Positions 5,690 to 16,798 of a stretch of 16,798 bases of DNA are shown piece by piece. The stretch is taken from UHGV virus genome UHGV-0140151; one strand, 5' to 3'. This stretch comes from a virus. Every line of letters starts with the position of its first letter. The stretch's first letter is position 1. The notes below the pieces were generated by a model. The model was given only the letters and a program-made list of their open reading frames with translations, ran no database searches and was not told the DNA's origin. The position numbers and the translations under genes are program-made.

Positions 5690-6121
5690 ATGTTTAACTA
5701 TCCGGTAAAACTGGAGCGCGACGACAAAACCGGCGCGTATGTCGTATCATGCCGCGACCTACCATTGTTTAATTCCGTGGGTGACTCAGTTGAAGAAGCG
5801 TTGCTTGAGGCTGGTTATGGATTGGTCGCAGCGGTTGCGATTGAGATTGAAGAACGCCGACCTGTTCCCACTGGTAGCGAGCCAAAAGAAGGTGAGTACG
5901 TTGTCTCTTTGCCAGTGCTACCAGCAATGAAGGCTGCACTCCACAACGCGATGATAGAAACCGGCACACGCAAAGCAGAGTTGGCGCGCAAACTCGGCAA
6001 AAATGGAACACAGATTGATCGGCTTCTCGACGTCGAACATTCATCGAAAGTTGAAACTGTCGAGCTGGCACTGCATCAACTGAATAAAAATATCGCCGTA
6101 TCTGTCACACCAATGCGGTGA
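5690..6121 (+). CDS. hicB: HicB-family antitoxin
   Basis: 143-aa ORF with AGGAG Shine-Dalgarno. HicB-like N-terminal domain and C-terminal HTH (RKAELARKLGKNGTQIDRLL). Its stop codon TGA (6119..6121) lies inside the IS-end-like repeat copy. Confidence 0.85.
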   Translation: MFNYPVKLERDDKTGAYVVSCRDLPLFNSVGDSVEEALLEAGYGLVAAVAIEIEERRPVPTGSEPKEGEYVVSLPVLPAMKAALHNAMIETGTRKAELARKLGKNGTQIDRLLDVEHSSKVETVELALHQLNKNIAVSVTPMR

Positions 6122-6440: not shown

Positions 6441-6896
6441 ATGAAAACATCTTATTTGACAATTTTAGCATTTCATATTCGAGACCTTCGCGAGGAGAAA
6501 GGAATCACCCAATTAGACATAGCGAACAAGCTAGGTATGACAAGTGCTGGTTGGGGGAAAATTGAAAATGGCAAATCGGCTCTCTCAGTAGAGAATATGT
6601 TAAAATTTTGCAAGATTATGGATATAGATCCATGCGTCCTACTTAACATATCTACAGAGTCCGCACGGATGTTAATTGAAAAAGGCTGGGTAGTATCTTA
6701 TTCACCTGTTGAGCGTGATAATCTTATAGATGGGAAAAATATATATACCAAGCTACATACAATGAATAATATTATGAGGAAATTTGTTGGTGAGCATTTG
6801 GAGGAAATATTAACAAGAGAATATAAAGACAGCATAACAAAATGCTCAACAATTTATATGGTTATTGTCAATAAGTTAGGTGTAAACATTATTTAA
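6441..6896 (+). CDS. XRE-family helix-turn-helix protein with a C-terminal domain of unknown function
   Basis: The ORF track starts at GTG 6435; ATG 6441 is preferred because of the Shine-Dalgarno spacing. HTH motif (ITQLDIANKLGMTSAGWGKIENGKSALSVENMLKFCKIMDID). AT-rich codon usage unlike the flanking genes. Confidence 0.75.
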   Translation: MKTSYLTILAFHIRDLREEKGITQLDIANKLGMTSAGWGKIENGKSALSVENMLKFCKIMDIDPCVLLNISTESARMLIEKGWVVSYSPVERDNLIDGKNIYTKLHTMNNIMRKFVGEHLEEILTREYKDSITKCSTIYMVIVNKLGVNII

Positions 6897-6913: not shown

Positions 6914-7666
6914 ATGGCTTATCGCGCAGATAGAGATTTAACATTTTTATCGCAGTGCAGCGATTGTGATCTTGATGATCTGGTCAATCTGTTGATTTAT
7001 GACAACGATGGAAAAAAACGCTGGACTGAAGAGTTATCAAACAACCCACTATATAAGCAATTTAGACCTCAACATAGCTTATACTGGCGTGAAATTGCAG
7101 CCGAAATCCAATGCTATGGTGGAAATACATTTGCAACATTGTTGCGTGGTGGAAAAGGAGTTTACTATAAAGAAATTCTTATTGATGTGTGTAAAAGGCT
7201 AAAAGTAAACTTTAATTCTGAAAGCGAAGTGGATGTGATTGAGAGAAATCTTCTTATGAAGATTTTAAGTGATGCTTTAGATAAAATGCCGCAGCAAGAC
7301 ATAAAAGAACTTGCTTTAGAGTTTGGTTTAGTAAACTTAAAAACATTCAATCGTGAAGCGATGCTGGCTGCAATACAATATATTTTTAATAGTGGCGGAT
7401 TTCGATCATATCAAATTACAGTTATGTTAGCCAATGTTATACTAAAGGCATTGATCGGTCGTGGTTTAACAATTGCAGCAAATGCGACTTTAGTTAGAAT
7501 AGTAAGCCTTTTAGCCGGTCCAATTGGATGGGCAATAACGGCCGCATGGACATTAGTTGACATTGGGGGCGCAGCTTATCGCGTTACAATACCTGCAGTG
7601 ATCCAACTAGCCGTTCTCAGAAGTAAAATAAACAATAATATAAAAGTTGATGACATTATTTTCTGA
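6914..7666 (+). CDS. hypothetical protein with a C-terminal glycine-rich hydrophobic (membrane-associating) region; possibly YaaW/UPF0174-like
   Basis: The ORF track starts at GTG 6908; ATG 6914 is preferred (GGAG 7 nt upstream). Sits 18 bp after the XRE gene. C-terminal segment GRGLTIAANATLVRIVSLLAGPIGWAITAAWTLVDIGGAAYRVTIPAVIQLAVL is hydrophobic and Gly/Ala-rich. Family resemblance is from memory only. Confidence 0.7.
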   Translation: MAYRADRDLTFLSQCSDCDLDDLVNLLIYDNDGKKRWTEELSNNPLYKQFRPQHSLYWREIAAEIQCYGGNTFATLLRGGKGVYYKEILIDVCKRLKVNFNSESEVDVIERNLLMKILSDALDKMPQQDIKELALEFGLVNLKTFNREAMLAAIQYIFNSGGFRSYQITVMLANVILKALIGRGLTIAANATLVRIVSLLAGPIGWAITAAWTLVDIGGAAYRVTIPAVIQLAVLRSKINNNIKVDDIIF

Positions 7667-7674
7667 TTAAAAAT

Positions 7675-7698
7675 GGGGCATTGCTGCCCCTTTCTTTC
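7675..7698 (+). terminator. intrinsic terminator of the cargo operon
   Basis: Stem ggggca / tgcccc with loop ttgc, followed by tttcttt; located 9 nt after the stop codon at 7666. Confidence 0.55.
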
Positions 7699-7700
7699 AC

Positions 7701-7900
7701 GCTGCATACCCGTTAGGTGACTGCTCCCCGCCCTGTCGGGCGAGGCTTCCCACTTCTCAGGCCGCAACCGTCTGTGTGACGGATTTACGCTGGCCTCCAT
7801 GGGCAGAAACGACGAGTCCCGCCGCTTGTAATTCCAGTATGCCCTTGCGTTTGATGTTGAGCGCCGCGTTGATATCGCGGTCATGTTCAACTCCACACTC
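7701..7900 (-). ncRNA. putative TnpB-associated omega RNA (reRNA) spanning the tnpB 3' end and right-end hairpin
   Basis: In characterised TnpB elements the guide RNA is made from the 3' end of tnpB plus the right end, with the guide read from flanking DNA. A strong hairpin is present at 7726..7745. Extent is inferred, not observed. Confidence 0.3.
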
Positions 7901-9045
7901 TGGACACTGCCAGATGCGCTTATGTAATGGCATCTCCGACATTTTGTGACCGCAGCAGTGGCAGGTTTTCGAACTGGCGAACCATTGATCCAGTTTCAAC
8001 AGATGCACACCTTTCTCTGCTGCTTTGTATTCCAGTTTTGTGATGAATCCAGACCATCCAGCATCGCCTATCGCACGAGCCAGATGGTGATTTTTCGTCA
8101 TATTTGCCGTTTTCAATGTCTCGACAATTACCGCTTGGTTTTCGTCAACAATTGCACGAGAGAGCTTGTGTTGAAAATCAGCACGGGCATTCGTCACCCG
8201 TTCATGTAAGGCCGCAAGACGGATTCTGGCCTTTTTACGGTTCGCGCTTCCCTTTTGTTTACGGGATAGCGCTTTTTGTTTGCGTCGCAGATTACGGCTG
8301 GCATTGATGAGATGGCGGGGATTCGCAATTTTTGCTCCGTCAGACCTGATGGCGTAGTGCTCAAGCCCCATATCCAGGCCAGTAACTGTTGATATCAACG
8401 TGGGTTTTGCCGGAGCTTCCAGACCATCATCGCAAAGTAGCGACGCATAATATTTACCCGTTTCTGAACGGGTGATAGTAATGCTTTTCAGCTTTCCATG
8501 AAGTTCACGATGAAGGCGTGCTTCTATCGGGGCCAGTTTGGGGATTTTGATGGCATTATCCAGCACCTTAATCCCGACACAGTGGTAGCTCGATTGTTTT
8601 CCGTGTTTACGTTTAAACGTCGGGAACTGCGCTTTCAGCTTCGGATTAAAAAAGTTGGAAAATGCCACATCAAGATTGATTACCGCCTGTTGCAATGCCA
8701 TTGAGTCAAATTCTTTGAGCCAGGCATATTTACGGGACTTTTTGGCCACAGACAACAACGGTTTCAGATCGTTACGCGGACTTAAATTTACTCCGTGTCT
8801 CTGGTAAGCGTGTTTTTTGATGTGAAGAGCTTTATTGTACGCAAAGCGTACCGCGCCGAACTGGGCATTGAGATACTTTGCCTGTTCCGGTGTTGGATAG
8901 ATGCGTACTTTTGTTGCTCTTAACATAGTCACTGCTCATTGGTACAGGTTTTTATGCTAACACCGTAATAATATTTTTAAAGCCCTATGGGCTTTTCCGC
9001 CTTTCCTCCCCGCCCGCATTGGGCGAGGGTTCTCGGCGGTTTTTC
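7717..9045 (-). mobile_element. IS200/IS605-family insertion sequence carrying tnpB only (no tnpA)
   Basis: TnpB ORF flanked by subterminal imperfect palindromes (7726..7745 and 9006..9028, both ctccccgccc-N-gggcgagg). The left boundary is set by the point where identity with the 6118 copy begins; the right boundary is approximate. Confidence 0.7.
7757..8932 (-). CDS. tnpB: TnpB (IS200/IS605 OrfB-family, RNA-guided nuclease-type transposase accessory protein)
   Basis: 391-aa ORF with N-terminal MTMLRATKVRIYPTPEQ, RuvC-like motifs (GLDMGLEHYA; EYKAAEKG) and a C-terminal zinc finger (CHCCGHK...CPECG). Confidence 0.9.
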   Translation of the reverse strand: MTMLRATKVRIYPTPEQAKYLNAQFGAVRFAYNKALHIKKHAYQRHGVNLSPRNDLKPLLSVAKKSRKYAWLKEFDSMALQQAVINLDVAFSNFFNPKLKAQFPTFKRKHGKQSSYHCVGIKVLDNAIKIPKLAPIEARLHRELHGKLKSITITRSETGKYYASLLCDDGLEAPAKPTLISTVTGLDMGLEHYAIRSDGAKIANPRHLINASRNLRRKQKALSRKQKGSANRKKARIRLAALHERVTNARADFQHKLSRAIVDENQAVIVETLKTANMTKNHHLARAIGDAGWSGFITKLEYKAAEKGVHLLKLDQWFASSKTCHCCGHKMSEMPLHKRIWQCPECGVEHDRDINAALNIKRKGILELQAAGLVVSAHGGQRKSVTQTVAA

Positions 9046-9398
9046 GCTGAAACCCAGTTTACGGTCTGTTCTTTGGCCTGGTCGAGTGTCAAAAATTCAC
9101 CAATATATTGAGATATGCCTCTCAAAGCATCGATGAACTCCATTTGTGATGATTTAGTAAATGCACCACTAAGGAAGTCAACAACAATTTTAGGCGTTTC
9201 TTGTGCCGCCGGTTGCACTTCCTCTTCTTGCTGTTGCGCTGGATTATTCGATGAACCAAGCCCCAGCTTCATCATCACTTCAACGATCCGCACGCCAATA
9301 GTGACACGTTGTACCGCAGTCGCGCTTTTTTGCGCTGACATCAGCTCAGACAGTTCTTTGCCTAAGCTAAGGCGCTCCGTTACTGATATTTTCACCAC
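8985..9398 (-). CDS. hypothetical phage protein whose 3' end is encoded by the IS left-end hairpin (chimeric or truncated)
   Basis: 137-aa ORF overlapping the upstream gene by 7 nt. Its last 16 codons (REPSPNAGGEERRKSP) and stop are encoded by 8985..9035, which lies within the IS end. Confidence 0.5.
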   Translation of the reverse strand: MVKISVTERLSLGKELSELMSAQKSATAVQRVTIGVRIVEVMMKLGLGSSNNPAQQQEEEVQPAAQETPKIVVDFLSGAFTKSSQMEFIDALRGISQYIGEFLTLDQAKEQTVNWVSAKNRREPSPNAGGEERRKSP

Positions 9399-11356
9399 AC
9401 GCCCCCTTGTTGTATCTCTGCCAAAATGTTGATCAGGTGATCGGCTGCCGCACCAACAAGTGACTCGTTCTCATCATATCGACCTGCGTTGATAAGAACA
9501 TTAGCTGCCTCCTGAATGCGATCAAACTCCGCTCTAATCACCGTCAAATCACGGGACGTAAACTGCAACGGCACGGATTTCAGATATTCCAGCGCACTGT
9601 CCGCCTCCTGATCAGCCTCACTAACGACTGGCCCATCTGAACCTGTATCAGACTCTTGGGGGGATTCAGGTTCAGACTCAGGTACTGGTTCTGGTACTGG
9701 TTCTGGTACTGCTTCCGGTGCCTGATCTAATGTCTGTTCAGCTTCGACTACTTCTGATTGATTCTGAAGCGCGTCATAGATATCCATTATAAAAAGGTTC
9801 TCCCCATCTCCAAGTGGATAAGCGACGTTAGGAAATGCTTTGCGGAAGAGGATTTTTATCTGCGCCTTAAAGGTTTTCAAGTCGCTTCCAAACAGATCAA
9901 CATAGCCATCAATATGGTTCGACATACTGGACGCAACCAATTCGCCTGCAATCTCTTTCAATTCATCGTCACCAGGGAGATATAGCAACTCGTACTGACT
10001 GACTTCTTCGTCTGTCAGTTTGCGGTCATACGTAATGATTCCGTGACGAGCATATTCGTAATACGGATCAGCCTGATCAGGACGGTCAAGTACAGCTTTA
10101 TTTCCTTCAGGAACCGCACCAACACCCGCTGGGCGAGATTGGAGCGCATAGCGATATTTACCAACCTCCAGGGGATCAGGATGTGATTCTGGTTGTGGTT
10201 CCTGTTCAGGCTGCTGCTGATCAGTTGGCTCAGGCTGGCCCGGCAACACATCCACTTTGTATTGATCAGCATTATGTTCACGATAGGCTTTAAGTAATTT
10301 GGTTGCAGCATCCGCTGAACTCCCACCTTTAACAGCACTGACATCAATACTGAAATTGCCTTCTGGTGCCTCAATCGTGACAAAGCTATCACTGCCTGAC
10401 GTGACATACTTAACTACAGCACCATTATCCAGCGTTGTTTGGCCTTCTGTAGCAAGATTATGTTTTATGTGTCGCAGTTGATCATTGAAGGCACGCTCTT
10501 TAGTTCCTTGGCTCTTAGCTGACAATAAATTATCGCGTTTAGCCTGCAATTCCGCGTTAAGGGCTTTTTGTACGTCTAATTTATTCTGCATATCATTGAG
10601 TGTTGAGCGTTTCTCTGCCAGCCCCCGCTGTGCGTCTTCAACCTGCTCAATCAGCACAGAACGTTCTTCTGCCAGCTTGTCGGCTTCATTGAGATACCCC
10701 TCAATATCAGCCTTCATTTTGTCCTGGCGCTCCTTTGCTTTTTTGAATTTTGCACTATTACGCTCAATGAGGTTAGAAAGCGCCTGGCATACCTGGCTCA
10801 GAGATACATCACGCCCACCGATTGGCGCAACAACATGCGTAACGTTTCTTTTGTTAAGAAGAAACTGAAACGCAACCAGCTCGTCATCCCCTTTAATTCT
10901 TGTGCCGTCTGCGGTTGGAGAATGGAAAATTATGCTTGTCGTTTGCCCATCGGTTAGAGGTATTTGTGCTGTTACAACAGGGATATTTGCAACCCGGCGC
11001 ACGCGCCCAATGATTGCCCCACCGATACTATTACGTCCGTCTTCATATTCTCCTGCCTCATCCGTACCCGCAGCAATGTCAGTGCCATTCAGGCCGCGAT
11101 TAAGCGCCCGGACGAATGCTCGCATTGTTTGCGCTAACCGCAATTTTGTTGTGGTTATAGCTTCGAACATTGCCTCATTGGTAGTTACCAAAATTTCGTT
11201 GCCCATATAGGCCAGCTCGATATCTTCCAGCGTCGCAGGCTCGATAAGTAAATCATCCTCGGTGATATCTTCCGCCACCCAACGATTAGGCGTATATCCA
11301 GTGAGCGTATCTGCAAAAGTGGACTGGATATTTATTCGAATAGGTTTCTTTATCAT
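9392..11356 (-). CDS. large acidic phage protein with coiled-coil and Pro/Glu-rich repeats (possibly a virion internal or Dar-like protein)
   Basis: 654-aa ORF whose start overlaps the upstream stop (ATGA). Contains PEPVPEPVPESEPE and PEQEPQPE low-complexity segments and a central coiled-coil. A DarA-like role is a guess from the operon context (holin-like gene upstream). Confidence 0.6.
   Translation of the reverse strand: MIKKPIRINIQSTFADTLTGYTPNRWVAEDITEDDLLIEPATLEDIELAYMGNEILVTTNEAMFEAITTTKLRLAQTMRAFVRALNRGLNGTDIAAGTDEAGEYEDGRNSIGGAIIGRVRRVANIPVVTAQIPLTDGQTTSIIFHSPTADGTRIKGDDELVAFQFLLNKRNVTHVVAPIGGRDVSLSQVCQALSNLIERNSAKFKKAKERQDKMKADIEGYLNEADKLAEERSVLIEQVEDAQRGLAEKRSTLNDMQNKLDVQKALNAELQAKRDNLLSAKSQGTKERAFNDQLRHIKHNLATEGQTTLDNGAVVKYVTSGSDSFVTIEAPEGNFSIDVSAVKGGSSADAATKLLKAYREHNADQYKVDVLPGQPEPTDQQQPEQEPQPESHPDPLEVGKYRYALQSRPAGVGAVPEGNKAVLDRPDQADPYYEYARHGIITYDRKLTDEEVSQYELLYLPGDDELKEIAGELVASSMSNHIDGYVDLFGSDLKTFKAQIKILFRKAFPNVAYPLGDGENLFIMDIYDALQNQSEVVEAEQTLDQAPEAVPEPVPEPVPESEPESPQESDTGSDGPVVSEADQEADSALEYLKSVPLQFTSRDLTVIRAEFDRIQEAANVLINAGRYDENESLVGAAADHLINILAEIQQGGVW
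9680..9715. repeat. three tandem 12-bp units (ggtactggttct) inside the 654-aa gene
   Basis: Directly visible; encodes in-frame PEPV repeats on the minus strand. Confidence 0.85.
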
Positions 11357-11970
11357 GCATCTTCCTCCAGGCGCGCTATTTCTTCTTTCAATACGCGAGT
11401 TTTCGCCAGTTCCTGCGCCATCTCGGTTCTAATGATTTCAGTTTCTCTTGTTGCGCGGTCTGAATTACCTTGCACCTGATTTAATTTTTCTTTGGCCCTT
11501 TCAATATCCTCGCGGATCGCATCGCGAGATTCCTTTGCCTCTGCTAGTTTCTGCGCATTGGACTTAACGCCTTTTATTTTCTTATTCCCATCATCAATAT
11601 CTTTCGCCGCACGAGCTAACTTACGCGCCAATGATTTCTGAAATGATGATGCGCCTTTATTAAATAAAGCAGCCAGTGATTGCCCTAAAGCCGTCAGCGT
11701 TTTAACAGGCTTGAAAGGAACAATTTTTCCGTTCAGTTTTACACCAGAAATATCACCAGTATCATTAACCTGAACGTCCATCGTCTGCTCATCGATTCCG
11801 ATAAGGGTAAACGTGCGCGTCATGATCCCGTCTTTCTTCCTGCCATTACTTGCAGGGATCACCCTCGCTATCTTGTAGCCTCCTTTACCGATTTCTTTGA
11901 CGAGTTTTGCCAGCCCCTTTTCGTTTAACTCATCATAATTAAGAAGAACATAATTAGACTTATTTGACAT
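11353..11970 (-). CDS. hypothetical coiled-coil phage protein
   Basis: ORF track gives 11353..11994; start at ATG 11970 is preferred (AGGAG 7 nt upstream). C-terminal half is strongly charged coiled-coil. Confidence 0.55.
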   Translation of the reverse strand: MSNKSNYVLLNYDELNEKGLAKLVKEIGKGGYKIARVIPASNGRKKDGIMTRTFTLIGIDEQTMDVQVNDTGDISGVKLNGKIVPFKPVKTLTALGQSLAALFNKGASSFQKSLARKLARAAKDIDDGNKKIKGVKSNAQKLAEAKESRDAIREDIERAKEKLNQVQGNSDRATRETEIIRTEMAQELAKTRVLKEEIARLEEDA

Positions 11971-12835: not shown

Positions 12836-13020
12836 ATGCTTATTGGATACATTCGCATATCAACAAATGACCAAAACACCGCTTTGCAACGCTCCCCCTG
12901 AAAGCGCAGGATGTGAGCTAATTTTTGAGGGCAAAGCGAGTGGCAAAAAGGCTGAATGCCAAGGGTTAAAAAAGGTTCTGCGTATGTTTTCCAGAGATGA
13001 AGAATTGGTCGTATAGCAGT
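12836..13020 (+). pseudogene. remnant of a second serine DNA invertase gene (frameshifted N-terminal fragment)
   Basis: ATG at 12836 with upstream AAGGGTGA encodes MLIGYIRISTNDQNTALQRSP then a stop. A shifted frame continues AGCELIFEGKASGKK...LVV. Nucleotide-level similarity to the 5' part of the intact invertase, in opposite orientation. Confidence 0.6.
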
Positions 13021-13268
13021 TAGAGCGGCTTGAGGGCAATTTAGTTGTGCTGCTGTAATCGCTGCGTGCCAGATGAATAAACCTTCTAAATCCCACTAAT
13101 TCTATCGGCATCTGTACACCAATGCAGCGCTCACGATGCAATTAAGATCAACATTACAAGGATAGTTTTCATTAGTGGTCGGTCCGACACAAGATGCATC
13201 GAATTGATGCGCCGCGCGATACGTGTATCTATTCCCTCGAGATAAATTACATCGACGCGGCATTTGTA

Positions 13269-13841
13269 TTACAACTCAGTTTGAGTTTGGCGCTTCTCTA
13301 CAGGGTGATAACGATAAATCGTCGATACACCGATATCGTAAATAATTGCCAACTGTTTCCTGCTGTAGCCATTTTCGATCAACCTCGCTATTTGCTCATG
13401 TTGTTCTTTTGTCAACTTCGGGCGACGTCCGCCAATGCGTCCCTGTTCGCGTGCAGCTGCCAGTCCGGCCAGGGTTCTCTCAACAATTAATTCACGTTCC
13501 ATTTCTGCCAAAGCCCCCATGACGTGAAAAAAGAAACGCCCCATGGGTGTTGAGGTGTCAATGCTGTCTGTCAGACTACGGAAATTAACACCTTTTTCCC
13601 GCAGCTCCTCAATAAGCGTGATCAGGTGTTTCATACTTCTGCCGAGCCTGTCCAGCTTCCAGACAACCAGCGTATCTCCTTCTGATAACGTTCTGAGCAG
13701 CTTTTTCAATCCTGGTCTGGCTGACTTTGTTCCGCTGATTTTATCTTCAAAAATTAGTTCACATCCTGCGCAGTTCAGTGCATTTCTTTGTAAATCTGTG
13801 TTTTGGTCATTTGTTGACACACGAATGTAGCCAATTTGCAT
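13269..13841 (-). CDS. serine DNA invertase (Gin/Cin/Pin/Hin/Min family)
   Basis: ORF track gives 13269..13850; ATG 13841 is preferred (GAGG 9 nt upstream), giving MQIGYIRVSTNDQNTDLQRNAL... Catalytic-serine motif (VSTNDQ), central WKLDRLGRS and C-terminal HTH are typical of Pin/Cin. Confidence 0.9.
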   Translation of the reverse strand: MQIGYIRVSTNDQNTDLQRNALNCAGCELIFEDKISGTKSARPGLKKLLRTLSEGDTLVVWKLDRLGRSMKHLITLIEELREKGVNFRSLTDSIDTSTPMGRFFFHVMGALAEMERELIVERTLAGLAAAREQGRIGGRRPKLTKEQHEQIARLIENGYSRKQLAIIYDIGVSTIYRYHPVEKRQTQTEL

Positions 13842-13894
13842 GAAAAACATCCTCTTGTTTAGTTAAAAATACATAGTTGGTATAGGTAGGGATT

Positions 13895-13920
13895 AAGACT
13901 AAAACGTTGGTTTGGGGGAA
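13895..13920 (+). other. putative invertase crossover site 1 (gix/hix-like)
   Basis: aagactaaaacgTTggtttgggggaa; core AAAACG-TT-GGTTT resembles hix/gix (AAAACC-AA-GGTTT). About 50 bp from the invertase start, at the 5' edge of cassette 1. Confidence 0.45.
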
Positions 13921-14373
13921 GGCTCAGCATTGCCCGTTGGCGTGCCCGTTCCGTGGCCCTTAGAAACACCACCAACGGGCTGGCTGAAATGCAATGGTGC
14001 AGCATTTTCTTCTGAAAAGTACCCAAAACTGGCAAAGGCTTACCCGACAAATAAATTGCCTGATTTACGCGGTGAATTTATTCGTGGCTGGGATGATGGG
14101 CGTGGTGTGGATGCCGGGCGACAATTATTATCTTCACAGGGGGATGCAATAAGAAATATTGAGGGGTTCGCAGATGGCGGGATCGGCATGTCTTTTGATG
14201 CAATCAGAGGGGCTTTTTATGATGCAGGAACACGATCTGCGAGAATGCCGAATAACACAACTGATATAGGCAAAACCGATGACCTTGGATTCGACGCCTC
14301 TCGTGTCGTGCCAACAGCTAATGAAAACCGTCCTCGTAATATTGCCTTTAATTATATCGTAAGGGCGGCATAA
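13912..14373 (+). CDS. tail-fibre C-terminal variable cassette 1 (promoterless, silent orientation)
   Basis: Collar-type motif (PVPWP...TGWLKCNGAAFS...YP..LAKAYPTNKLPDLRGEFIRGWDDGRG), unique middle, shared ending RPRNIAFNYIVRAA. No ATG; the frame is open upstream through the crossover site. Confidence 0.7.
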   Translation: MGEGSALPVGVPVPWPLETPPTGWLKCNGAAFSSEKYPKLAKAYPTNKLPDLRGEFIRGWDDGRGVDAGRQLLSSQGDAIRNIEGFADGGIGMSFDAIRGAFYDAGTRSARMPNNTTDIGKTDDLGFDASRVVPTANENRPRNIAFNYIVRAA

Positions 14374-14392
14374 AAACGTTGGTTTGGGGGAA
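14367..14392 (+). other. putative invertase crossover site 2
   Basis: ggcataaaaacgTTggtttgggggaa; same core as site 1; overlaps the stop of cassette 1. Confidence 0.45.
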
Positions 14393-14890
14393 GGCTCTGC
14401 GCTGCCCGTTGGTGTACCTGTTCCATGGCCATCAGCCACACCGCCAACGGGGTGGCTGAAATGTAACGGAGCAGCATTTTCTTCTGAAAAGTACCCAAAT
14501 CTGGCAAAGGTTTACCCCACCAATAAATTGCCGGATCTACGGGGCGAATTTATTCGTGGCTGGGATGACGGACGTGGTATGGATACGGGGAGGGCAATAT
14601 TATCCGCTCAGGGCGATGCCATACGTAATATCTATGGTGAGTTCAAGACTGTAAACACCGAAAATTATTCAATATGGGAATCAGTAGGCTCGTTTAAGGG
14701 GGCAGTAGTGCCTTTGAGCCCCTCAACGAACAATAGTTATTTCTCCTTAGTCAGAAGTATGGTGACAGAAAGAACAGATGGCGCTGTTTACCCAAAAGTG
14801 ATTGGCCTTGATGCTTCAAGAATTGTTCCAACTGCAAACGAAAACCGTCCTCGTAACATTGCGTTTAATTACATCGTAAGAGCCGCATGA
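14384..14890 (+). CDS. tail-fibre C-terminal variable cassette 2 (silent)
   Basis: Same conserved 5' collar-type segment and 3' RPRNIAFNYIVRAA as cassette 1, with a different middle (...EFKTVNTENYSIWESVGSFKG...). Confidence 0.7.
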   Translation: MGEGSALPVGVPVPWPSATPPTGWLKCNGAAFSSEKYPNLAKVYPTNKLPDLRGEFIRGWDDGRGMDTGRAILSAQGDAIRNIYGEFKTVNTENYSIWESVGSFKGAVVPLSPSTNNSYFSLVRSMVTERTDGAVYPKVIGLDASRIVPTANENRPRNIAFNYIVRAA

Positions 14891-14909
14891 AAACGTTGGT
14901 TTGGGGGAA
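14884..14909 (+). other. putative invertase crossover site 3
   Basis: cgcatgaaaacgTTggtttgggggaa; same core as sites 1 and 2. Confidence 0.45.
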
Positions 14910-15362
14910 GGCTCTGCGCTGCCCGTTGGTGTACCTGTTCCGTGGCCCTCAGCCACACCACCAACGGGCTGGCTAAAATGTAACGGTGCGGCATTTTCTG
15001 CTGAAGAATACCCGGAATTGGCAAAGGCTTATCCGACAAATAAATTGCCTGATTTACGTGGTGAGTTTATGCGTGGCTGGGATGATGGAAGAGGCGTTGA
15101 TAGTGGCAGGGAGATTCTCACTGCGCAATCTCATGGTATGCCGTCTATTTCAGGAACGTTTAATGGTCTTTTTGCTGTTAAACAAACAAATGGTTTAGGT
15201 GGTGTTTCTGTAGTAAAAAGTAAAAATGCTGAAACTTTATCTACTTCATCTGGATCAGGTTCCGTGTTTGATTACACGTTTAATGTCAGCGGCTCGACTC
15301 CGGTATCACCAGAACTTCGTCCGCGTAATATTGCATTTAATTACATCGTAAGAGCGGCATAG
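14901..15362 (+). CDS. tail-fibre C-terminal variable cassette 3 (silent)
   Basis: Conserved ends as in cassettes 1 and 2; Gly/Ser-rich unique middle. Confidence 0.7.
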   Translation: MGEGSALPVGVPVPWPSATPPTGWLKCNGAAFSAEEYPELAKAYPTNKLPDLRGEFMRGWDDGRGVDSGREILTAQSHGMPSISGTFNGLFAVKQTNGLGGVSVVKSKNAETLSTSSGSGSVFDYTFNVSGSTPVSPELRPRNIAFNYIVRAA

Positions 15363-15381
15363 AAACGTTGGTTTAGGGGAA
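15356..15381 (+). other. putative invertase crossover site 4
   Basis: gcatagaaacgTTggtttaggggaag; same central AAACGTTGGTTT. Confidence 0.4.
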
Positions 15382-15402
15382 GGTTCGGCGCTGCCCGTTG
15401 GC

Positions 15403-15831
15403 GTGCCCGTTCCATGGCCCTCAGCCACACCGCCAACGGGGTGGCTAAAATGTAACGGAGCAGCATTTTCTTCTGAAAAGTACCCCAAGCTGGCAAAGGT
15501 TTACCCAACGTTAAAATTACCTGATTTACGCGGTGAGTTTATCCGTGGTTGGGATGATGGGCGAGGTGTGGATGCGGGAAGGGGCATCTTAAGCATACAG
15601 GGGTGGTTAACAGGAAGTCATTATCATAATATTCGGTCATGGGACGCGTGGGATAACACGGTATTGGTGCCAAATGACAGAGGGGGGGATAGTCTGTTGT
15701 CGACAGATAACGCCGTCCGAGAAGGAGCGATTAATGGTAAATTTACCAGTCAATACAGAACGGAGTTATCTGGGGGGGATGAAACCCGCCCACGTAACAT
15801 TGCCTTCAATTATATTGTGAGAGCAGCATAA
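15403..15831 (+). CDS. tail-fibre C-terminal variable cassette 4 (silent), translationally coupled to tfa
   Basis: Frame is open from site 4 (about 15361). Unique middle with HYH (GSHYHNIRSWD). Stop TAA overlaps the tfa ATG (TAATG). Confidence 0.7.
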   Translation: MPVPWPSATPPTGWLKCNGAAFSSEKYPKLAKVYPTLKLPDLRGEFIRGWDDGRGVDAGRGILSIQGWLTGSHYHNIRSWDAWDNTVLVPNDRGGDSLLSTDNAVREGAINGKFTSQYRTELSGGDETRPRNIAFNYIVRAA

Positions 15832-16442
15832 TGAATAATGCGATATTAAATAGCGAACTTATAGCCATACAGGCAGGAAACATTATCGTTTATAACTATG
15901 ATGGTGAGACACGGGAATATATTTCAGAGTCAACTGAATATCTTGCTGTGGGTGTTGGTATTCCGGCTAATTCCTGTTTAGATGCCCCAGGCGCACATAA
16001 ATCGGGCTATGCTATCCGCCGTTCGGAGGATTTAAATTCATGGGAGTATGCGCCAGACCATCGTGGTGAAACCGTCTATAGCACTGAAACGAGAAACTCC
16101 GAAGAAATAACGGCGCTGGGTGAATACCCGGAAAATACAACTACTCTCGCCCCGCTAACACCATACGACAAATGGGATGGAGATAAATGGGTGGTTGATA
16201 CTGAGGCTCAACATAGTGCAGCTGTAGAGGCAGCAGAAACAAAACGTCAGTCATTGATTGATACTGCGATGGCTTCCATTAGTCTGATTCAGTTGAAATT
16301 ACGGGCTGGACGGAAGTTGACGCAGGCAGAAACCACACAGCTTAACTCTGTGCTAGATTATATAGACGAGCTGAACGCGATGGATTTAACCACGGCACCA
16401 GATCTCAACTGGCCTGAAAAACAACTTTCTGCAGCCAGTTGA
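15831..16442 (+). CDS. tfa: tail-fibre assembly protein (Tfa/U-like chaperone)
   Basis: 203-aa ORF with features typical of Tfa proteins (DKWDGDKWVVD..., C-terminal LNSVLDYIDELNAMDLTTAPDLNWPE). Confidence 0.85.
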   Translation: MNNAILNSELIAIQAGNIIVYNYDGETREYISESTEYLAVGVGIPANSCLDAPGAHKSGYAIRRSEDLNSWEYAPDHRGETVYSTETRNSEEITALGEYPENTTTLAPLTPYDKWDGDKWVVDTEAQHSAAVEAAETKRQSLIDTAMASISLIQLKLRAGRKLTQAETTQLNSVLDYIDELNAMDLTTAPDLNWPEKQLSAAS

Positions 16443-16447
16443 TATAA

Positions 16448-16798
16448 TTAAGCCGCTCTCACAATATAATTAAATGCAATATTACGAGGGCGGGTTTCTA
16501 AGCCAGCAGTACCTAAATTAGCTACGGACTGTTTATATGTTTTAAAGGTTCCATAATTAGGGGCTGGCAATCCTGCATCGCTTGTGTTCCCCCATCTGAT
16601 AACTCCCGTATTACCACTAGTAGCCCATGCCTCGTCAAAGTAGAAATTAATTGAGCTGTCAGTTGCTACGGTTGATTTTGACGGTAATCCGTGAGCATGA
16701 TCCTCCGTTGCATATCCTTGCCCGCTTAAAATAGAGCGACCAGAGTCAATCCCTCGCCCATCATCCCAACCACGGATAAACTCACCGCGTAAATCAGG
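16448..16798 (-). CDS. tail-fibre C-terminal cassette 5, inverted orientation (partial; 5' end beyond the window)
   Basis: Minus-strand translation gives ...LPDLRGEFIRGWDDGRGIDSGR...HAH...ETRPRNIAFNYIVRAA then stop (16448..16450). No start codon inside the window. Confidence 0.7.
   Translation of the reverse strand, partial: PDLRGEFIRGWDDGRGIDSGRSILSGQGYATEDHAHGLPSKSTVATDSSINFYFDEAWATSGNTGVIRWGNTSDAGLPAPNYGTFKTYKQSVANLGTAGLETRPRNIAFNYIVRAA

Follow-up and report, generated by a model that had tools for sequence, protein, structure and literature searches.

A probable Min-type multiple-inversion locus for the tail-fibre tip of a P1-like phage-plasmid

The viral genome UHGV-0140151, a stretch of 16,798 nucleotides that was analysed in its entirety and is called the window below, carries at its right end a locus that is, with high confidence, the invertase-proximal part of a Min-type multiple-inversion system switching the tail-fibre tip of a P1-like phage-plasmid. 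The locus comprises a serine DNA invertase gene, four direct crossover sites at the starts of four promoterless tail-fibre cassettes, a single tail-fibre assembly gene (tfa) and a fifth cassette in inverted orientation. An exact-protein look-up showed the window to be a whole short-read metagenome contig in ENA with a coverage of 4.5x (ERZ1749178, NODE_1168, 16,798 bp), and since it is the entire contig, its right end is an assembly break that leaves the constant fibre gene out of view. The constant gene, S, and its partner site are inferred for this element from its relatives, and the receptor specificities of the tips are inferred as well.

The comparisons draw on seven complete multi-site relatives, namely L001, L002, L004 (NZ_CP196102), L008 (MF510496, pMCR_SCKP-LL83), L009 (NZ_MG288678, p160070-MCR), L020 (NZ_CP141766) and L021. 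In addition, they include the plasmids L005 and L006 (NZ_CP086513 and NZ_CP086483), the IMG/VR contigs L010–L014 and L016, a 99.7%-identical metagenome contig from a different sample.

Invertase, crossover sites and cassettes

The features of the locus are listed by their positions in the window.

13269–13841, minus strand: serine DNA invertase, 190 aa (MQIGYIRVSTNDQ...), with Resolvase (PF00239, E 2e-51) and HTH_7 (PF02796, E 4e-15) domains
13752–13823, no strand assigned: presumed Fis-dependent recombinational enhancer, nt 19–90 of the invertase gene, ~85–155 bp from site 1
13895–13920, plus strand: site 1, invertase-proximal, AAGACTAAAACG-TT-GGTTTGGGGGAA
13906–14373, plus strand: cassette 1, 3′ segment of a tail-fibre gene without promoter, made up of collar, unique tip and RPRNIAFNYIVRAA; PF07484
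14367–14392, plus strand: site 2, GGCATAAAAACG-TT-GGTTTGGGGGAA
14378–14890, plus strand: cassette 2, PF07484
14884–14909, plus strand: site 3, CGCATGAAAACG-TT-GGTTTGGGGGAA
14895–15362, plus strand: cassette 3, PF07484
15356–15381, plus strand: site 4, GGCATAGAAACG-TT-GGTTTAGGGGAA
15367–15831, plus strand: cassette 4, first half of a 'double-headed' central segment, PF07484; its stop overlaps the tfa start (TAATG)
15831–16442, plus strand: tfa, the single tail-fibre assembly (chaperone) gene, 203 aa; Caudo_TAP, E 6e-31; phrog_105, E 2e-92
16448–16798, minus strand: cassette 5, inverted, completing the central segment; the contig breaks off within its conserved N-terminal part

The initial annotation had proposed at least five alternative C-termini in this region, four in direct cassettes and one inverted, and all five were recovered at the positions given above. 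The frames on the plus strand comprise 142–168 codons, and the Phage Tail Collar domain (PF07484) is detected in each of these four cassettes with E-values from 1e-15 to 1e-14. The composition that had been suggested for the cassettes, a collar-type N-terminal part followed by a unique middle and a shared ending, applies to all five frames, in which the first ~78 residues are near-invariant (VGLGEGSALPVGVPVPWP...DDGRG), the middle of 60–90 residues is unique and the ending RPRNIAFNYIVRAA is invariant. At the nucleotide level, the conserved N-terminal parts of the cassettes are 79–83% identical over 300 nt with exact stretches, and those of cassettes 4 and 5 are identical. The full-length cassette 5, with an inverted site upstream, is seen in L016.

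Structure-database searches with a cassette gave as the best match a 554-aa short tail fibre (9cuy, E 6e-31), and further matches to the tip of T4 gp37 (2XGF, E 2e-16) and to T4 gp12. The N-terminal part of the cassette aligns with the collar, and NIAFNYIVR(A/L)A recurs nearly letter for letter, the chain of 2XGF ending in NIAFNYIVRLA. In gp37 and gp12, the chain exits the collar, forms the receptor-binding tip and returns, and the C-terminal strand completes the collar. A cassette would accordingly be a collar domain with a variable tip inserted, as in the T4 gp37 tip, and the invariant C-terminal RPRNIAFNYIVRAA would complete this collar, which would explain why both cassette ends are conserved. 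The conserved 5′ end also bears the crossover site. The T4 proteins differ from the cassettes in that they are encoded by fixed, unshuffled fibre genes, and the middle of a cassette is much shorter than the needle and head of gp37.

That the cassettes have no start codons of their own, as had also been suggested, is borne out by their reading frames, which are closed by a stop 0–4 codons upstream of the site and hold their first ATG at codon 63 or later, cassette 4 being devoid of any ATG. ORF finders and the PGAP pipeline nevertheless call separate coding sequences of 140–170 aa ('phage tail protein') in such regions, and the cassettes could in principle be independent small genes, translated from TTG or GTG starts into co-expressed tip proteins. 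This reading is scarcely credible, since the sole early start-like codon is a TTG within the crossover site that lacks a Shine-Dalgarno sequence and is replaced by TTA in cassette 4, and since the frames are shut immediately upstream. Moreover, sigma-70-like promoter motifs are not enriched in the region (5 versus 7.0 ± 2.6 expected), and no P1 late-promoter-like box was found there. The cassettes furthermore match only the C-terminal ~160 positions of long fibre families (phrog_523, positions 479–638 of 673; phrog_3100, positions 210–382 of 382), and in relatives the reading frame of S continues through the site into a cassette.

As parts of one switchable gene, unfused cassettes would be silent because they have no promoter, ribosome-binding site or start codon. 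Compared with their orthologues in relatives, the cassettes show dN/dS values of 0.03–0.15 (cassette 1, 0.03–0.07; cassette 2, 0.05–0.10), and the value for tfa is ~0.2. Such strong purifying selection on silent cassettes is expected if each of them is translated whenever it is fused to S.

The direct cassettes had been described as starting at sequences that resemble Gin-family crossover sites. Indeed, a 21-nt core, AAACGTTGGTTTNGGGGAAGG, occurs in four copies on the plus strand (at 13902, 14374, 14891 and 15363) and not once in 200 dinucleotide-preserving shuffles. The four direct sites of 26 bp follow the form nnnnnnAAAACG-TT-GGTTTrGGGGAA (12-2-12), with the Gin-family layout of imperfect inverted half-sites of 12 bp on either side of an asymmetric 2-bp core, and are perfect or nearly so. 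For comparison, the annotated P1 sites are CAATCCTAAACC-TT-GGTTTAAGAGAA (cixL) and TTATCCAATACC-TT-GGTTTAAGAGAA (cixR), and Mu gix is TTATCCAAAACC-TC-GGTTTACAGGAA. The alignment to gix and cix that the initial annotation had called for thus places the sites of the window with P1 cix by their core TT, and the sites share the half-site GGTTTnnnGGAA/GAGAA with P1 cixL and cixR and with Mu gix. The right or 'head' half together with the TT core is of the cix/gix type, the left or 'tail' half is the end of whatever precedes the site, and this half is poor at the internal sites, which have G instead of C beside the core. On this comparison, the sites of the window are true Gin/Cin-type 26-bp sites.

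The invertase gene had been placed about 50 bp from the first site, and the distance from its start codon to site 1 measures 44–53 bp, the span reflecting an alternative upstream ATG at 13850 that would yield a protein of 193 aa. The protein shows the architecture of small serine recombinases, whose N-terminal catalytic domain has the active-site serine near residue 9–10 and is followed by a C-terminal helix-turn-helix. It aligns over its full length with the Gin structures 4m6f and 3uj3 (E 4e-92), is ~80% identical to crystallised Gin and has the motif RVSTNDQ with the catalytic serine, where the mutant protein of 3uj3 reads RVATNDQ; its amino acid identity to P1-type Cin is 74.5%. In L001, L004, L008 and L009, the four of the seven relatives for which this was measured, 189–190 of the 190 residues are identical, and a dN/dS of 0–0.02 points to strong purifying selection. 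NCBIfam provides no specific name for the invertase, tfa or the cassettes.

Within the 5′ end of the invertase gene, 59 of the 72 nt at 13752–13823 match the annotated P1 cin enhancer (NC_005856, 31678–31749), while the whole gene is only 69% identical, and 54 of the 72 nt match the same part of Mu gin. This stretch is presumed to be a conserved Fis enhancer that, as in Mu, would lie ~85–155 bp from site 1.

Natural isomers and a topological model

Since the window ends before the constant part of the fibre gene, the prediction that such a part and an inverted partner site follow to the right was followed up in relatives, where it proved correct for every complete multi-site relative. All seven share one layout, in which the invertase gene is followed by sites and cassettes on the plus strand, one tfa, sites and cassettes on the minus strand and the constant part of S; beyond it lie R, baseplate and sit genes that are P1-like. 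The constant part of S in these relatives ends in a hix/cix-like site, TTCTTGATTACC-TT-GGTTTrGGGGAA, with the good hix-like tail half TTCTT(G/A)ATTACC, and the junction reads in frame into the cassette as ...IQSVLDY/LGLGEGSALPVG, also given as ...IQSVLDY/LGLGEGSALPVGVPVPWP.

Structural isomers, which the initial annotation had expected, were found among relatives with the same enzyme. The plasmids MF510496 and NZ_MG288678 are both 97,393 bp in length, and the 3-kb flanks of their inversion regions are 100% identical on each side. The 4,924-bp regions themselves consist of the same eight 100%-identical segments, cut exactly at the TT cores, in permuted and inverted order, and a breadth-first search allowing only exchanges between oppositely oriented sites connects the two arrangements with a minimum of four inversions. 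Polymorphisms one base to the left of TT (C/G) and six bases to the right (A/G) confine the exchange to TTGGTTT. A third isomer is present in NZ_CP141766, in which seven of the eight segments occur at 100% identity in another order and with the central segment flipped. In relatives whose invertase matches that of the window at 189 of 190 residues, this combination of enzyme and sites is thus shown to invert DNA in nature.

The long near-identical inverted repeats in these regions would also be compatible with general homologous recombination between the ~200-nt conserved inverted N-terminal parts instead of a site-specific invertase. Such a process would be expected to leave mosaic N-terminal parts and scattered exchange points, whereas all eight segment boundaries in L008 and L009 fall at TT cores and the exchange is limited to the 7 nt TTGGTTT. 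With an intact Gin-family invertase adjoining its cognate sites, this explanation is highly improbable.

Site-specific inversion would proceed as follows. The Gin-family serine invertase would recombine the 26-bp sites at their central TT, probably assisted by Fis bound to the enhancer in the 5′ part of its own coding sequence. Each site would be composed of the conserved head half GGTTTrGGGGAA, with which the coding sequence of a cassette opens, and a tail half that varies, being the end of the preceding cassette or of the flank. Serine invertases do not recombine direct repeats and join only inverted sites, so that each event should pair a plus site on the invertase side with a minus site on the S side, and all DNA between them would be inverted. 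Another cassette would thereby be set in frame behind the constant part (...SVLDY/LGLGEGSALPVG...), and only the cassette fused to S would be translated. In this model, ordinary segments are head-to-tail with one cassette each, the central segment made up of cassette 4, tfa and the inverted cassette 5 is head-to-head, and both flanks end in tail halves. Cassettes would then cross the central segment one at a time, switching strand as they do so.

It follows from the head/tail model that the cassettes on the invertase side lie on one strand and those on the S side on the other, and that every inversion spans the central segment, which accounts for how the strands are distributed in each of the seven complete multi-site relatives. 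In every one of them, the sites, which number from 4 to 13, are arranged exclusively as a run of plus sites followed by a run of minus sites, with the switch at tfa. Throughout the relatives, cassette 4, tfa and cassette 5 stay together in an unchanged relative arrangement, while a single cassette may lie on the plus strand of one plasmid and on the minus strand of another. Cassettes with a variable part 99.5% identical to that of cassette 1, for instance, are present in one or the other orientation in L004, L008, L009 and L020, and orthologues of cassette 2 lie on the minus strand in L004 and on the plus strand in L021, a plasmid with up to eight consecutive direct sites. As a separate observation, the region 8207–15101 of L004, an E. 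coli plasmid, packs 13 crossover sites, far above the six of p15B, and 13 cassettes into 6.9 kb; some cassettes are duplicated, the protein WP_072756900.1 occurring twice among them.

For n sites, the model allows (n-2)! x (n-1) x 2 arrangements and n alternative fibre tips; the arrangements amount to 240 with six sites, 80,640 with nine and ~1e9 with 13. Sandmeier et al. reportedly gave the same number, 240 isomers, for the Min system of plasmid p15B in 1990. The pattern of four plus sites followed by the central segment implies a minimum of five cassettes and of five sites for the element in the window.

Cassette 3 has a different distribution. Its variable part was not found among the P1-like relatives compared, and an exact 42-mer taken from it had no match in the genome contigs collection. 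The five IMG/VR viral contigs L010–L014, which belong to different phages, at 93–97% identity, contain the variable part at 97.6–98.5% identity together with the exact 42-mer, and in all of them a tfa gene that is ~80% identical to that of the window directly follows the homologue of cassette 3. This points to a possible exchange of tip cassettes between different phage types.

The contig end, locked derivatives and the orientation of tfa

Several observations weigh against reading the locus as a functional inversion system. All four sites in the window are direct and no inverted site lies within it; the constant S gene and the inverted partner site lie outside the contig, which ends in cassette 5. 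The order of the cassettes derives from a 4.5x short-read assembly of a possibly heterogeneous region, and the enhancer is assigned by homology only. Searches for sigma-70-like and P1 late-promoter-like sequences revealed no promoter for the only tfa, which is antisense to the S operon in the window-like arrangement, so that not every isomer need be productive. Finally, L005 and L006 have no inverted partner site and a different fibre gene, and are apparently locked derivatives. In these two plasmids, the region 7568–11784 holds the invertase gene, two direct sites with cassettes and tfa, and there is a gp53-like fibre gene with its own tfa.

The first and the last of these points suggest that the window might likewise hold a frozen or orphan array that has lost its inverted partner site or a matching S part and whose cassettes are silent fossils. 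Plasmids of the L005/L006 type are in that state, having two direct sites, the gp53-like fibre gene and no inverted site, and in the Ec-050 strain series to which they belong, which was checked for isomers within a host, the annotation tables are identical across isolates from different time points, an unchanged arrangement that is consistent with a locus holding direct sites only. Unlike L005, however, the window contains an inverted cassette, cassette 5, including the conserved N-terminal part, and an inverted site is present upstream of this cassette in the 99.7%-identical L016 as well as in all seven complete multi-site relatives. Considering in addition that the invertase is intact, that both invertase and cassettes are under strong purifying selection and that the four sites are perfect or nearly perfect, a frozen array is improbable.

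The order and number of the cassettes must be viewed in the light of the assembly, since in a 4.5x short-read contig with repeat-rich cassettes the cassette order represents one assembled path. The row of four direct cassettes could be a chimeric path through repeats or a blend of coexisting isomers, given the low coverage and the 79–83% identity of the N-terminal parts, with their exact stretches. The last 47 nt of the window (16752–16798) are the exact reverse complement of 15520–15566 in the conserved N-terminal part of cassette 4, and L017 and L018, further metagenome contigs from this element, break at 16781, inside the conserved N-terminal part of cassette 5 and 17 nt before the window's end, so that three independent assemblies stop in this part of the locus. 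Breaks shared in this way typically arise where the assembly graph branches at an invertible segment bounded by repeats. L016, in turn, joins the end of cassette 3 and the following site to cassette 5. An inversion between site 4 and the site preceding cassette 5 is predicted to yield just such an isomer, but the join may equally be an assembly fold-back through the identical N-terminal parts of cassettes 4 and 5. On the other hand, complete plasmids display the same architecture, with eight direct sites in L021 and 13 sites in L004, and except for the inverted repeat of cassettes 4 and 5, exact identity mostly stays below usual assembly k-mers. An artefactual order is thus rather unlikely, and it would touch the order of the cassettes only and not the nature of the system.

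A consequence of the head/tail model concerns the single tfa. Because every permitted inversion spans cassette 4, tfa and cassette 5, each event should reverse the orientation of tfa with respect to the S operon. Six of the seven complete multi-site relatives (L001, L002, L004, L008, L009 and L021) have tfa antisense to S, as does the window-like arrangement, and only L020 has it in sense orientation. It is conceivable, though we consider it doubtful, that the supply of the chaperone depends on inversion parity and that, barring an orientation-independent tfa promoter, about half of the isomers, the window-like arrangement among them, make no fibres or different ones. If true, this parity effect would add a hidden second level of phase variation to the choice of tip; no description of a parity-dependent chaperone supply was found for Min-type systems.

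Comparison with known systems, genomic surroundings and significance

The Min system of p15B in E. coli 15T- was reportedly described by Sandmeier, Iida, Arber and colleagues between 1990 and 1992. The likeness to it that the initial annotation had pointed out is apt: both reside on P1-related plasmid prophages, both have an invertase of the Din/Gin family beside overlapping invertible segments with more than two sites, and both combine one constant tail-fibre 5′ part, known here from relatives, with several promoterless 3′ parts. They differ in the number of sites, which is six in p15B, four plus at least one inferred in the window and 4 to 13 in the relatives. The term 'shufflon-like', which had been used as well, stands as an analogy only. 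Like the locus in the window, the R64 shufflon (Rci, pilV) has a constant 5′ part and invertible 3′ cassettes between short repeats that provide alternative adhesin tips, but it employs the tyrosine recombinase Rci and 19-bp sfx repeats and acts on a pilus adhesin, which makes the locus an analogue and not a member of this group. A tyrosine-recombinase shufflon was rejected as a reading of the window because no tyrosine recombinase is present, only the serine invertase with 26-bp hix-like sites, and a locus of the diversity-generating retroelement type was rejected for lack of a reverse transcriptase.

Two further features lie between the lydA holin gene and the live invertase, where they abut each other.

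12836–13131, plus strand: dead cin-like invertase remnant, the gene's 5′ ~300 nt with a 2-nt deletion that causes a frameshift; the enhancer-like stretch is kept
13122–13204, minus strand: degenerate cassette 3′-end relic (...FDASCVGPTTNENYPCNVDLNCIVSAA), an inverted repeat of 14289–14371 (76%) with no crossover site after it

The remnant aligns with nt 1–307 of P1 cin at 77% identity, and the homology of the relic to the cassettes ends where the stop codon and the site would be. The same cin pseudogene is annotated in L004 and L005, and an intact recombinase gene occupies this place in an Escherichia marmotae plasmid (L003). Remnant and relic together look like the scar of a P1-type cin module that was replaced by an oppositely oriented module of the Gin/Pin type.

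The succession of lydA, dead cin remnant, cassette relic and oppositely oriented invertase, with the enhancer end beside the sites, is a p15B-like layout. According to the P1 GenBank record, nt 7147–7408 of p15B, beside lydA, are 89% identical to the cin promoter and the first ~170 nt of the gene, nt 6463–6533 are 83% identical to the cin enhancer, and lydA is located at nt 7728–8294. By arithmetic, the distances in window and p15B agree once the longer cin remnant of the window is allowed for. The invertase of pJIE250-3 (MN510445) has been reported to be 98.5% identical to that of Min.

With the C segment of P1 and its invertase Cin and the G segment of Mu and its invertase Gin, the locus shares the enzyme family (74.5% identity to P1-like Cin, ~80% to Gin) and the 26-bp design of the sites, P1 cix having the core TT and the head half GGTTTAAGAGAA in common with it. 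It also shares the location of the enhancer, presumed here, within the 5′ part of the invertase coding sequence, and the target, the 3′ part of the S gene. In P1 and Mu, however, there are two sites, two states and a dedicated tfa gene (U, U′) for each alternative, whereas numerous sites and numerous cassettes of only ~150 aa share one tfa here. As in Mu, the reading direction of the invertase gene leads away from the invertible DNA; in P1 it leads towards it. A related case is the Enterobacter prophage FRphi, in which Gin drives a three-cassette tail-fibre 'shufflon' (Nat Microbiol 2026, PMC13418256); switching was shown with long reads, a gin deletion and locked variants, and FhuA was identified as the receptor for one isoform (PMC13418256). 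There, too, a Gin-type invertase swaps alternative C-terminal segments of a tail fibre, but FRphi has three cassettes and is an integrated prophage.

The gene neighbourhood of the locus is P1-like, including repL, pro, portal, darA (DarA_N/DarA_C), lydB and the lydA holin gene, and the window is part of a P1-like phage-plasmid. The left 13 kb are 97% identical to the E. marmotae plasmid L003, which covers 70% of the window, and the backbone is a diverged P1-like lineage with this plasmid as the nearest relative. Two accessory genes were noted in this part. A TnpB/IS605-family gene of 391 aa at 7757–8932 on the minus strand (OrfB_IS605 and Cas12f1-like_TNB domains, phrog_506 transposase) is located between a DUF3944 gene and the darA operon here and between portal and hicA in L003, and this element appears to have moved or to have been gained independently. 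A HicB-like antitoxin gene and a helix-turn-helix regulator (5690–6121, plus strand, and neighbours) lie between portal and the darA operon, a stretch of accessory cargo that the E. marmotae relative also carries.

The inversion module is found at 92–94% identity in ~245 plasmids of E. coli, Klebsiella and Salmonella, mostly ~90–100 kb in size and non-mobilisable, and parts of it are present in about half of the complete E. coli genomes. The locus thus belongs to a known kind of system, recognised since 1990 and abundant in plasmids and prophages of Enterobacteriaceae, and is nothing new in kind, the mechanism having been elucidated for p15B, P1 and Mu decades ago. For annotation, this means that where many small coding sequences labelled 'phage tail protein' adjoin a 'recombinase family protein' in plasmids and prophages of E. 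coli, they represent silent 3′ cassettes of a single gene, and that any assembly of such a region is a momentary picture of a mixed population. For the phage-plasmid itself, the locus sets which bacteria it can adsorb to, and as P1-like phage-plasmids carry resistance genes such as mcr-1 and blaCTX-M, a repertoire of 5 to 13 interchangeable tips bears on their spread.

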